The position numbers were made by a program, and so were the translations under genes. 64,000 nucleotides of DNA from a phage. The notes under the pieces are model-generated. The model was not told the origin of the DNA and did not search any database. It saw only the letters and a program-made list of their open reading frames with translations. Positions within the stretch are counted from its first letter, which is position 1; every line of letters starts with the position of its first letter. Below are positions 42,841 to 44,610 of the stretch, piece by piece. The stretch is taken from sequence record PZ452594.1. One strand, 5' to 3'.

Positions 42841-43153
42841 CCTTGCGGCAACCTTGTCGGGGTTCCACCTGCTAAGGCAAGTGTTTGTACGAAACGCCGG
42901 GATTCGAACCCGGTTATTAAGCAGTTGACGCTACTCAATATTTTTAAAAGGCCATATCTCGACCATATCCGAACGTTCCGTCAAAAACGCTACTCGGCTT
43001 ACGGCAAAGATATTTCCTCGAATCGATAATTCGGTGCGCCGTTTCTGCTGTGATATAAGAGGGCATTAACAAAACATAAAGATTTATTAATGCCAGTCCT
43101 TAAACAGGGAACATCAGTCCGACGACTTACCGGTAGCGACCCGGTTTCTTGTT
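42841..43153 (-). ncRNA. stable small RNA(s) of the tRNA cluster (T4 rnaC/rnaD-like), tRNA-like T-arm
   Basis: no ORF; sense contains CCGGGTTCGAATCCCGG; lies between tRNA-Arg and the cluster terminator. Confidence 0.35.
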
Positions 43154-43228
43154 TGGTATCCCGCCCTGGGATCGAACCAGGACCGCAAACTTAGAAGGAT
43201 CGTATGCTATCCATTACACCAGCGGGAC
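43154..43228 (-). tRNA. tRNA-Arg (anticodon UCU), CCA encoded
   Basis: hand-folded GTCCCGC...CTTCTAA...GGTTCGATCC...GCGGGATACCA. Confidence 0.75.
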
Positions 43229-43233
43229 ATAAT

Positions 43234-43899
43234 TTAAAATTTCATTTTTCGACCTTTAAACCATCCTTCTGGAATTGGGTCAGTTTTCTTAATACGTTTA
43301 GAAACTTTTTCATCTAATGAATGAATCCACATCATACCAAATTGGGAATTCTTTTCACCTTTCTGGTGATTATTTTTAGCGTGAATTTCTTTCATTTTAT
43401 TAATAGTTTCAAGAGTATGATGCTTATTTAAAAATCTGCTATTATTTAAAAATTTTTCCTTGTATTCAGGAGTTGACCATAAACGTTTAAATACATTTGA
43501 ACCATTTTGACGATATTTTTCTTGAAGTAAAATATCATTTTTAAAACGTGACTTAAACGATTTAGCTCCTTTTAAACTAGCGTCTTTCTTCTGATTTAGC
43601 ATCTCAGGAATATTTATATGATCCCATCCGCCTTCACCGCCAAGTTTTAAATTATACACATCTGGTCTATTTAAAAACTCTTCTGTGACAATATTTTTCT
43701 CGGCTTCAAGCATAGATTCTTTATCATCAAAATATTCTAATATTTCTTTAGAAAAATTTTCTATACCATACCTGTCTTGGGCTCTTTTTAATAATTTACC
43801 AGAACCCATATATCCATCATCTAAATTTTCGGTAGAATGCACACCAATATAAATTTTATTATTAATTTTATTTGTTATTTTATAAAGATAAAAATGCAT
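43234..43899 (-). CDS. segB: GIY-YIG homing endonuclease (SegB-like, 221 aa) inside the tRNA cluster
   Basis: GIY-YIG motif FYLYKITNKINNKIYIGVHS; ATG at 43897-43899; the longer track ORF would overlap tRNA-Tyr. Confidence 0.65.
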   Translation of the reverse strand: MHFYLYKITNKINNKIYIGVHSTENLDDGYMGSGKLLKRAQDRYGIENFSKEILEYFDDKESMLEAEKNIVTEEFLNRPDVYNLKLGGEGGWDHINIPEMLNQKKDASLKGAKSFKSRFKNDILLQEKYRQNGSNVFKRLWSTPEYKEKFLNNSRFLNKHHTLETINKMKEIHAKNNHQKGEKNSQFGMMWIHSLDEKVSKRIKKTDPIPEGWFKGRKMKF

Positions 43900-43945
43900 A
43901 TCAGTCCTTAATAAAGAACTGAGCGTCTCACGACGAGTCATAAAT

Positions 43946-44032
43946 TGGTGGGGAGTGATGGAGTCGAACCACCCGAGTCGCAATGACAATGAATTTACAG
44001 TCCACACCGCTACCTCTACGGGATAACTCCCC
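43946..44032 (-). tRNA. tRNA-Tyr (anticodon GUA), long variable arm, CCA encoded
   Basis: hand-folded: acceptor GGGGAGT/ACTCCCC, anticodon loop CTGTAAA, T-loop TTCGACT. Confidence 0.6.
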
Positions 44033-44041
44033 TAATTAATT

Positions 44042-44118
44042 TGGTGACCCAGACCAGATTTGAACTGGTAACCTTTCCCTTATGAGGGGACTGCTGCTAA
44101 CCATTGAGCTACAGGGCC
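44042..44118 (-). tRNA. tRNA with CAU anticodon (Ile by T4 analogy, or Met), CCA encoded
   Basis: anticodon loop CTCATAA; T-arm ACCAG-TTCAAAT-CTGGT. Confidence 0.6.
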
Positions 44119-44119
44119 T

Positions 44120-44195
44120 TGGTGCTGATTGACGGAATCGAACCGCCGACCTTCTCATTACAAGTGAGTTGCTCTACCTACTGAGCTAAATCAGC
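44120..44195 (-). tRNA. tRNA-Thr (UGU), CCA encoded
   Basis: anticodon loop CTTGTAA; acceptor GCTGATT/AATCAGC. Confidence 0.75.
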
Positions 44196-44197
44196 AA

Positions 44198-44284
44198 CGG
44201 AGGCGATAGGATTCGAACCTATGAATCGCCGGAGCGACTGCCGGTTTTCAAGACCGGTGCATTAAACCACTCTGCCACGCCTCC
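44198..44284 (-). tRNA. tRNA-Ser (UGA), long variable arm, CCA not encoded
   Basis: anticodon arm CCGGT-CTTGAAA-ACCGG; acceptor GGAGGCG/CGCCTCC. Confidence 0.75.
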
Positions 44285-44286
44285 AG

Positions 44287-44360
44287 TCTCCATACAAGGA
44301 TTTGAACCTTGGACCTCCTGATCCCAAATCAGGCGCTCTACCAAACTGAGCTACACGGAG
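44287..44360 (-). tRNA. tRNA-Pro (UGG), CCA not encoded
   Basis: anticodon arm CCTGA-TTTGGGA-TCAGG; T-arm CAAGG-TTCAAAT-CCTTG. Confidence 0.7.
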
Positions 44361-44370
44361 TAAATTAAAT

Positions 44371-44444
44371 TGGAGCGGATAATGAGAATCGAACTCACAT
44401 CATCAGATTGGAAGTCTGAGGTAATACCATTATACGATATCCGC
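44371..44444 (-). tRNA. tRNA-Gly (UCC), CCA encoded
   Basis: anticodon arm TCAGA-CTTCCAA-TCTGA; acceptor GCGGATA/TATCCGC. Confidence 0.75.
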
Positions 44445-44449
44445 AAATT

Positions 44450-44536
44450 TGGTGCGAGAAGTGGGACTCGAACCCACAAGGAAATCATTCCGCAGCATTT
44501 TAAGTGCTGTGCCTTTACCAATTTGACCATTCTCGC
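44450..44536 (-). tRNA. tRNA-Leu (UAA), long variable arm, CCA encoded
   Basis: anticodon arm CAGCA-CTTAAAA-TGCTG; acceptor GCGAGAA/TTCTCGC. Confidence 0.75.
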
Positions 44537-44537
44537 G

Positions 44538-44610
44538 CTGGGAATAAAGGACTCGAACCTTTGCATCCTGGAATCAAAATCCAGTGCCTTACCAACTTGG
44601 CTAATTCCCA
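44538..44610 (-). tRNA. tRNA-Gln (UUG), CCA not encoded
   Basis: anticodon arm CTGGA-TTTTGAT-TCCAG; T-arm AAAGG-TTCGAGT-CCTTT. Confidence 0.75.

Follow-up and report, generated by a model that had tools for sequence, protein, structure and literature searches.

The 64,000-nucleotide (nt) stretch of phage DNA analyzed here (record PZ452594.1; hereafter the window) carries, on its minus strand, a tightly packed cluster of nine transfer RNA (tRNA) genes, an embedded segB gene encoding a GIY-YIG homing endonuclease, and two stable RNAs. There is little doubt in our minds that we are dealing with the tRNA operon found in T4-like phages (Tequatrovirus), in the configuration represented by phages T6 and PST. 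An earlier note on this DNA, made by hand folding, had proposed nine tRNA genes and assigned their anticodons and order; ARAGORN, run over the whole window, agrees exactly. It calls nine tRNA genes in total, every one of them on the minus strand and confined to 43154-44610. Along that strand come, in turn, Gln(UUG), Leu(UAA), Gly(UCC), Pro(UGG), Ser(UGA), Thr(UGU), a tRNA with a CAU anticodon, Tyr(GUA), segB, Arg(UCU), rnaD, rnaC, and a terminator. The spacers between tRNA genes, put by the same note at 1–10 nt, measure 1, 5, 10, 2, 2, 1, and 9 nt. Eight of the nine genes score 48.8–72.9 bits under the general tRNA model RF00005, for which the Rfam gathering score is 29, the exception being tRNA-Tyr. 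The features of the locus are as follows, listed from its upstream to its downstream end.

44680-44704, minus strand: middle-promoter-like site, comprising TGCTTTA at 44704-44698 (MotA-box-like), a 12-nt spacer, and a -10 element TATTAT at 44685-44680.
44538-44610 (44537-44610 by ARAGORN), minus strand: tRNA-Gln(UUG), no encoded CCA; ARAGORN, Rfam 67.4 bits.
44450-44536, minus strand: tRNA-Leu(UAA), class II, CCA encoded; ARAGORN, Rfam 59.3 bits.
44371-44444, minus strand: tRNA-Gly(UCC), CCA encoded; ARAGORN, Rfam 65.8 bits.
44287-44360 (44286-44360 by ARAGORN), minus strand: tRNA-Pro(UGG), no encoded CCA, T4 allele; Rfam 66.8 bits.
44198-44284 (44197-44285 by ARAGORN), minus strand: tRNA-Ser(UGA), class II, no encoded CCA; Rfam 63 bits.
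44120-44195, minus strand: tRNA-Thr(UGU), CCA encoded; ARAGORN, Rfam 72.9 bits.
44042-44118, minus strand: CAU-anticodon tRNA, predicted tRNA-Ile2 type, CCA encoded, unlike T4; Rfam 53.9 bits.
44032-44036, minus strand: ATTAG microhomology, upstream copy, at the 5' edge of tRNA-Tyr and overlapping its first base.
43946-44032, minus strand: tRNA-Tyr(GUA), class II with a long variable arm and an unusual D-arm, CCA encoded; ARAGORN.
43901-43922, minus strand: segB leader hairpin, 9 base pairs (bp), burying the Shine-Dalgarno sequence AAGGA; minimum free energy (MFE) of the leader -14.4 kcal/mol.
43234-43899, minus strand: segB, free-standing GIY-YIG homing endonuclease, 221 amino acids (aa), ATG start; Pfam PF01541.
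43314-43318, minus strand: ATTAG microhomology, downstream copy, inside segB at about codon 194-195 of 221, 28 codons before the end.
43154-43228, minus strand: tRNA-Arg(UCU), CCA encoded, 75/75 identical to T4; Rfam 48.8 bits.
43033-43152, minus strand: rnaD (T4 species 2 stable RNA), mapped from the T4 annotation at 87.6% identity.
42888-43026, minus strand: rnaC (T4 species 1 stable RNA), mapped from the T4 annotation at 98.6% identity.
42808-42887, minus strand: 3' trailer and intrinsic terminator, a 10-bp G+C-rich hairpin at 42837-42814 followed by a T-run.

Homology places the locus firmly. A megablast search with the 2-kb region matched 1049 phage records, nearly all of them T4-like (Tequatrovirus-like) phages of enterobacteria, with PST, Pu-Krd-SF4, and T6 matching at 96–98% identity. 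DNA homology with the T4 and T6 tRNA region is collinear and extends into the flanks; over the flanking 24 kb the window is 96–97% identical to several Tequatrovirus genomes, and identical to none. The statement in the earlier note that T4 has eight tRNAs and lacks Tyr is precisely what the T4 reference annotation (NC_000866) records. Set beside T4, T2, and T6, as that note had proposed, the window proves to be a T4-type cluster plus one tRNA-Tyr, a gene also annotated in T6 and T2. Four annotated layouts occur among the relatives: that of PST and Pu-Krd-SF4, and those of T6, T4, and RB10.

A base-level five-way alignment of the window with T4, T6, PST, and Pu-Krd-SF4 illustrates how these layouts relate. 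Yersinia phage PST (KF208315 / NC_027404) and Escherichia phage Pu-Krd-SF4 share the gene order of the window throughout, including the rnaD/rnaC region, at 96.5–97.8% identity over approximately 2 kb. They nonetheless differ from it in individual alleles: PST has a T4-type Gln allele and a different Pro allele, while Pu-Krd-SF4 departs in its CAU-tRNA allele and in a tRNA-Ser that encodes CCA. T6 (MH550421 / AP018814) carries the same CAU-Tyr-segB-Arg module, but lacks tRNA-Pro and tRNA-Ser, both of which the window retains. The T6 loss is a deletion between the D-arm sequence TAGCTCAGT that Pro and Thr share (approximately 1855-1936 of the T6 stretch compared), and what remains is a chimeric 'tRNA-Thr', in which the Pro-derived 5' acceptor strand CTCCGTG cannot pair with the 3' strand AATCAGC; this T6 gene is probably defective.

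T4 resembles the window in synteny, promoter region, terminator, and the absence of encoded CCA from Gln, Pro, and Ser. The two differ in a single replacement of about 140 bp, which in the window comprises the CCA of the CAU tRNA, the 9-nt spacer, tRNA-Tyr, a 46-nt leader, and the first ~5 codons of segB; in its place T4 holds about 41 bp of unrelated leader and a divergent segB start. T4 tRNA-Ile therefore lacks the CCA that the window, T6, and PST encode at this position. The ten-tRNA clusters of RB3/RB10 and T2L have the Gln...CAU-Tyr run and rnaD/rnaC in common with the window, but they lack segB (PMC2330249, Brok-Volchanskaya et al. 2008). At the place taken by segB in the window they carry tRNA-Asn, which in RB10 separates Tyr from Arg, and their Arg allele differs. 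The gene arrangement and every component are thus already annotated or published, and nothing in the locus is new. What distinguishes the window from its relatives is shuffled alleles of single tRNA genes, together with two uncommon substitutions in tRNA-Ser.

The tRNA-Tyr gene demands closer scrutiny, because the search tools disagree about it. ARAGORN draws a cloverleaf which, together with the sequence, shows GUA in a 7-nt loop, a long variable arm, A73, and G1-C72, the identity features of a bacterial-type class II tRNA-Tyr. Several observations weigh against accepting this call. The gene falls below the RF00005 gathering score and is not listed by Rfam at that threshold; a permissive search gives tRNA-Sec as its best Rfam clan match, at 29.9 bits against a family cut-off of 47. 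Folded alone, the sequence yields acceptor and T arms without cleanly formed D and anticodon arms, and its stability does not exceed that of shuffled sequences (z = -0.65). In the cloverleaf itself, one D-stem position is a C-C mismatch and two anticodon-stem pairs are G-U, and the T6 counterpart has been described as appearing relatively unstable (PMC13096335, Chihara et al. 2026). Such features could be read as those of a decayed pseudo-tRNA that ARAGORN has over-called. The caution in the earlier note, that software might reject the Tyr or the CAU fold, proved apt in part: ARAGORN accepts both, and Rfam misses Tyr.

Covariation speaks decisively for the cloverleaf. A sensitive BLAST search with the gene and its flanks matched 1340 phage records, from which a 13-sequence alignment brings together the window, T6, PST, RB10, and nine sequences from other phages (Vequintavirus, Tequintavirus, Felixounavirus, Jiaodavirus, Certrevirus, Efbeekayvirus, Phapecoctavirus, Enterococcus Schiekvirus, and one unclassified Klebsiella phage). 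Across these homologues, 15 pairs have changed on both sides and 99.3% of cells are paired. Double-change cells number 37, compared with 7.7 ± 2.4 in shuffles (0 of 500 shuffles did as well), and sliding the 3' partners by 1–3 columns reduces pairing to 43–58%. Pairing is complete (100%) in the acceptor, anticodon, and T helices and reaches 94.9% in that of the variable arm. The D-stem is the informative case: in the ARAGORN register it is only 65% paired and the C-C mismatch is present in all 13 sequences, but it is 100% paired when drawn as a shifted 3-bp CCG/CGG helix. This shifted register is probably why the gene scores poorly under the general tRNA model.

With compensatory changes in every arm across at least nine phage genera, an invariant anticodon loop (CUGUAAA), A73 and CCA in place, and a T6 counterpart differing by one base that is seen by northern blot and rescues infection (PMC13096335), the pseudo-tRNA explanation is scarcely credible. 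Not only does the covariation override the sub-threshold Rfam score, but it argues for a genuine class II tRNA-Tyr gene that is conserved and whose D-arm is unusual. The general Rfam tRNA model, in other words, misses a widespread phage tRNA-Tyr.

Nor is the gene a rarity among close relatives. At 95% identity or more it occurs in about 400 phage records, and an extra Tyr is annotated in T6, PST, RB3/RB10, RB14, T2, and hundreds of other Tequatrovirus records; an extra tRNA-Tyr is not unusual in this genus. Beyond close relatives, BLAST places tRNA-Tyr genes of this phage type, at 74–94% identity, in at least nine unrelated phage genera, namely Tequatrovirus, Vequintavirus, Certrevirus, Tequintavirus, Felixounavirus, Jiaodavirus, Efbeekayvirus, Phapecoctavirus, and Schiekvirus. 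Host origin of the gene was considered and rejected: a sensitive blastn search of 5,426 complete E. coli genomes returned plasmid copies only, with no chromosomal match. The same tRNA-Tyr type, 80–95% identical, lies on plasmids in 269 of these 5,426 genomes. On one plasmid examined, the 110-kb NZ_CP048306.1, it belongs to an Asn-Tyr-Thr-Ser tRNA cluster (3421-4422 of the compared stretch) that adjoins genes for DNA ligase, glutaredoxin, and a tyrosine recombinase. With such phage-like content, this plasmid looks like a phage-plasmid.

The partner of tRNA-Tyr in the window is segB. The earlier reading of a 221-aa, segB-like GIY-YIG open reading frame (ORF) between tRNA-Tyr and tRNA-Arg is confirmed by a PF01541 match of 26.1 bits, above the cut-off of 22.6, and over 221 aa the protein matches T6 SegB at every residue (100% identity) and T4 SegB at 95%. 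Its ATG start at 43899 is preceded by an AAGGA Shine-Dalgarno sequence and agrees with the T6 and T4 annotations; a 257-aa version starting at a GTG was rejected, as it would overlap tRNA-Tyr. T6 SegB has been shown experimentally to possess nuclease activity and to act in amplification, and mutation of the catalytic residues Y17/G19 in its N-terminal GIY-YIG domain abolishes its function (PMC13096335).

Is the segB copy in the window merely an inactive relic? The leader hairpin, which buries the ribosome-binding site, and the report that SegB activity is undetectable in extracts of T4-infected cells (PMC2330249) could be taken in that sense. Against this, the 221-codon frame is intact, its product is identical to the active T6 enzyme, and both Y17 and G19 are kept, making a relic without current function highly improbable. 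The hairpin may serve translational occlusion of segB, as its predicted fold suggests; a comparable occluding hairpin has been proposed for T4 segB (PMC2330249). The segB leader of the window is identical to that of T6. The window and T4 leaders, on the other hand, are unrelated in sequence, and yet both hide the Shine-Dalgarno sequence, with folding energies of -14.4 and -19.4 kcal/mol, respectively.

The position of segB is instructive in light of the target of its product. The preferred SegB cleavage site lies in tRNA-Asn (PMC2330249), and segB in the window occupies the position of the RB10 tRNA-Asn. Local alignment of RB10 tRNA-Asn to the Tyr-Arg interval of the window revealed no tRNA-Asn remnant, only generic T-arm similarity inside tRNA-Tyr. 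As a selfish homing endonuclease, SegB would be expected to convert segB-less, tRNA-Asn-bearing relatives in mixed infections. The Tyr-segB junction occurs in exactly 24 phage records, including T6, PST, Pu-Krd-SF1 to SF7, a48, FJ1, GRNsp7, BP32, and UPWr_E4. Within the 64 kb of the window there are seven copies of the SegB core motif GGTTCRANTCC, always on the minus strand within this locus (42900-44559): six tRNA genes (Gln, Leu, Pro, Ser, Thr, and Tyr) and rnaC contain them. RAWTSGAAC, a motif taken from the SITE-seq work of 2026, is likewise present seven times, four of them in this locus.

In both T4 and RB33, the segB cassette starts right after the discriminator A of the CAU tRNA, despite differing CAU alleles (T4 stretch 2181-2222; RB33 approximately 1444-1485; window 44042-44045). 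This start coincides with the preferred cutting position of SegB (CCAR; PMC2330249). To judge from the alignment, the loss of tRNA-Tyr from T4 and the loss of the tRNA-Ile CCA look like one SegB-associated event.

The Tyr-segB pair also provides the raw material for a specific form of amplification. T6 mutants that escape the Septu defence system carry tandem repeats of a 718-bp unit consisting of tRNA-Tyr and segB without its last 28 codons, and these repeats arise via microhomology in a manner dependent on SegB nuclease activity (PMC13096335). In the window, as in T6, the two ATTAG copies lie exactly 718 bp apart. Because this arrangement matches both the length of the T6 repeat unit and its 28-codon truncation, the same amplification could occur in this phage. 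Under pressure of the Septu type, SegB could in such a scheme start tandem amplification of the Tyr-segB unit, as in T6.

The earlier note left the CAU tRNA open between Ile and Met; of these, only Ile, of the Ile2 type, is favored. Elongator tRNA-Met is the label given by ARAGORN and by most GenBank records, as in most automated annotations, from the anticodon alone. The gene is, however, identical at 74/74 positions to the one annotated as tRNA-Ile in the T4 reference, and in its acceptor stem are C4:G69 and C5:G68, the pairs that chiefly mark a tRNA for E. coli TilS (PMC12514573). Codon usage points the same way, with AUA at 11.9 per 1000 codons in the window compared with 4.9 in E. coli (PMC12514573), in keeping with the A-ending-codon logic of the cluster. 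In view of the T4 identity and the TilS pairs, we predict an AUA-reading tRNA of the Ile2 type, whose CAU anticodon would be converted to a lysidine-bearing form, and consider tRNA-Met very unlikely. The CAU tRNAs of these phages should accordingly be annotated as Ile2 rather than Met.

That logic emerges from a count of 14,896 codons in 60 ORFs of the window. The A-ending cognate codons occur, per 1000, at 27.7 (UUA), 23.7 (CAA), 19.9 (GGA), 18.9 (UCA), 18.4 (ACA), 12.7 (CCA), 11.9 (AUA), and 11.0 (AGA). The tRNAs of the cluster apart from Tyr, eight in number, decode codons ending in A, which are in heavy use in this phage of 35% G+C; such is the usual codon-supplement logic.

Individual tRNA genes occur among Tequatroviruses as discrete alleles with compensatory stem changes (the Gln anticodon stem, Pro, the CAU tRNA, and Arg), reassorted from phage to phage. 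The Gln anticodon stem-loop allele of the window differs from that of T4 by five compensatory changes; it was considered as a novelty and rejected, being the majority allele, present in 290 of 465 records at 99% identity or more. The Thr variant (A27/A43) was set aside likewise, as it is common to RB32 and RB33, the RB33 allele being identical. The only tRNA changes in the window that are rare among relatives are thus two substitutions in tRNA-Ser relative to T4/RB33, at 44225 and 44214. One, a C to T in the variable arm, turns a G-C pair into G-U. The other, an A to G in the T-loop, converts GGTTCAAATCC to GGTTCGAATCC and so creates 'G6', one of the five bases by which the tRNA-Asn site that SegB prefers differs from its poorer tRNA-Ser site; self-cleavage at the tRNA-Ser of the window may thereby be increased.

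Direct reading of the 3' ends in the sequence bears out the earlier claim that Gln, Pro, and Ser have no genomic CCA; the other six genes encode it. tRNA-Gln ends ...CCCA-G-C, with only the first C of CCA present before G1 of tRNA-Leu follows directly. tRNA-Pro ends ...GGAG-A-C-U, a discriminator A followed by C-U, and tRNA-Ser ends ...CUCCG-UU, ahead of tRNA-Ser and tRNA-Thr, respectively. Encoding of CCA by tRNA-Ser varies among relatives, being present in Pu-Krd-SF4 and absent from the window, T4, and PST; the 90-nt annotation of RB10 tRNA-Ser suggests that it too encodes CCA. The accompanying claim, that Gln, Pro, and Ser need CCA addition, is supported by the missing triplets. RNase P cleavage at 5' ends, 3' trimming, and CCA addition by the host are classical biology of the T4 tRNA precursor. 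By the same route, host RNase P would make the tRNA 5' ends in this phage, and the 3' ends of Gln, Pro, and Ser would be completed by trimming and the host CCA-adding enzyme.

Transcription of the operon probably starts at a MotA-type middle promoter upstream of tRNA-Gln and proceeds, as one transcript of about 1.9 kb, to the hairpin terminator after rnaC. The T4 precedent is close: there, a middle promoter immediately ahead of the tRNA cluster accounts for most transcription of the cluster and of segB, giving one precursor of about 1.75 kb that ends after species I RNA (PMC2330249). In T4, T6, PST, and Pu-Krd-SF4 the middle-promoter-like site ahead of tRNA-Gln is unchanged, and we regard it as a putative MotA-dependent middle promoter. 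Three points temper this account of the operon. The MotA box was identified by eye. A consensus scan found no sigma-70-like promoter directly upstream of tRNA-Gln, its site number equaling shuffle expectation, so that a promoter of this kind was rejected there. More broadly, our picture of expression, processing, aminoacylation, lysidine formation, SegB activity, and defence phenotype is drawn entirely by analogy with near-identical relatives.

The 3' part of the operon consists of rnaD and rnaC. The earlier note described approximately 310 nt of non-coding RNA with a tRNA-like T-arm after tRNA-Arg, and this segment is recognizable as T4 rnaD plus rnaC: the 313 nt from 43153 to 42841 hold no credible ORF, align to both T4 genes, and contain the hairpin CCGGG-UUCGAAU-CCCGG. 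At the 5' end of rnaC, CGAUUCG pairs in the consensus fold with the CGUUUCG directly after this hairpin, and the 3' end of rnaC could plausibly form an acceptor-like stem stacked on a T-arm-like hairpin, that is, an acceptor/T-arm minihelix. Comparison of seven Tequatrovirus sequences offers little covariation, with rnaC near-invariant (0 compensatory pairs) and rnaD showing only wobble changes and one compensatory pair; neither fold is proven, though both are plausible. With E values up to 1 allowed, a permissive search of Rfam found no family for rnaD or rnaC in 42841-43153; weak matches to sX4, YrlA, and Plastid-ycf2 overlap tRNA genes, lie far below threshold, and were dismissed as tRNA-like noise.

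Several further observations concern these RNAs and their surroundings. rnaC, a minihelix with a large insertion, stays near-constant in the seven phages while the neighboring tRNA alleles vary, and the motif GGTTCGAATCC begins within it at 42910. rnaD is followed by CCA in T4 and RB10, and by CCG in the window. To our knowledge, neither RNA has a known function; within the operon, they are conserved stable RNAs that would be co-transcribed. The terminator hairpin is kept in 7 of the 7 phages compared. Directly after the terminator runs a mosaic boundary, beyond which the window has a 153-aa ORF (42309-42770, minus strand) where T4, T6, and PST have e.8; Pu-Krd-SF4 appears to share this 153-aa ORF.

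What, then, might the ninth tRNA contribute? It stands outside the codon-supplement logic of the other eight, reading both Tyr codons, though these are frequent: at 45.6 per 1000 in the window, they lie well above E. coli, in which Tyr codons occur at roughly 28 per 1000. The tRNA would add tyrosine-decoding capacity, and one could hold that it serves ordinary translation only, meeting the tyrosine-codon demand of an AT-rich phage, with any anti-defence effect incidental. The enrichment of other AT-favored amino acids, and the tRNA-Asn that segB-less relatives also carry, fit such an explanation. It must contend with the facts that tRNA-Tyr, unlike its eight neighbors, is not aimed at a host-rare codon, that T4 lacks it, and that the same type recurs in unrelated phage families and on phage-like plasmids.

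Recent work on bacterial defence bears directly on this choice. During T6 infection, the Septu system Ec-B88 (PtuAB) cuts tRNA-Tyr in the variable arm at C48/A49 (PMC13096335). The T6 tRNA-Tyr is expressed, as northern blotting detects it, and its overexpression rescues T6 from Septu; a T6 mutant deleted for the tRNA region is more sensitive to Septu, and T4, without tRNA-Tyr, cannot escape it (PMC13096335). For the proponent of a purely translational role, it is of some comfort that Septu also cuts the T6 tRNA-Tyr, so that the phage tRNA is not a resistant variant (PMC13096335). Given the greater sensitivity of the T6 deletion mutant and the rescue by overexpression, we nevertheless judge a role confined to ordinary translation to be unlikely.

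A part in coping with tRNA-Tyr-directed nucleases is the reading we prefer, and the window gene is well matched to it. It differs from T6 tRNA-Tyr by one base (a G50-U64 pair in the window, G-C in T6), keeps U47-C48-A49, and has a variable arm identical to that of T6. Because of this identity at and around the cut site, the window tRNA-Tyr is predicted to be a Septu substrate or decoy like that of T6, and not a resistant variant. By homology to T6, it would replenish the tRNA-Tyr pool, or act as a decoy for it, when PtuAB-type nucleases such as those of Septu and retron-Eco7 cut. Some restraint is needed, as the single-copy tRNA-Tyr of wild-type T6 protects only to an intermediate degree (PMC13096335), and the defence benefit of one tRNA-Tyr copy may be small.

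Retron-Eco7 supplies a parallel from other phage families. Strongly expressed tRNA-Tyr from T5, SP15, and KpP_HS106 rescues phages from this system (PMC11555353, Azam et al. 2024), and these tRNAs belong to the same phage-type family as that of the window. T5-like and KpP_HS106 genes are among the BLAST relatives of the window gene, and a T5-like one is in the covariation alignment; in a T5-like phage, the variable arm GUCAUUGCGAC and the D-loop are nearly identical to those of the window, with compensatory changes elsewhere. The genetic setting is a different matter. The T5/SP15 and KpP_HS106 genes reside in another phage family, in a large tRNA array with a strong dedicated promoter and no link to SegB, unlike the Tyr gene of the window.

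Taken further, these similarities invite the tentative and still rather doubtful proposal that this tRNA-Tyr is a distinct lineage, marked by the conserved shifted 3-bp D-stem and the GUCAUUGCGAC variable arm, which circulates horizontally as an anti-defence cassette, its architecture selected by tRNA-Tyr-targeting nucleases and its movement between genomes helped by T-loop-targeting endonucleases like SegB. The idea of a circulating anti-defence tRNA would be a modest extension of published work. For the phage itself, a more immediate expectation follows from its gene content: in possession of the full T4 tRNA set together with the T6-type Tyr-segB module, it is predicted to behave as T6 does, and not as T4, toward defences of the Septu and retron-Eco7 types.

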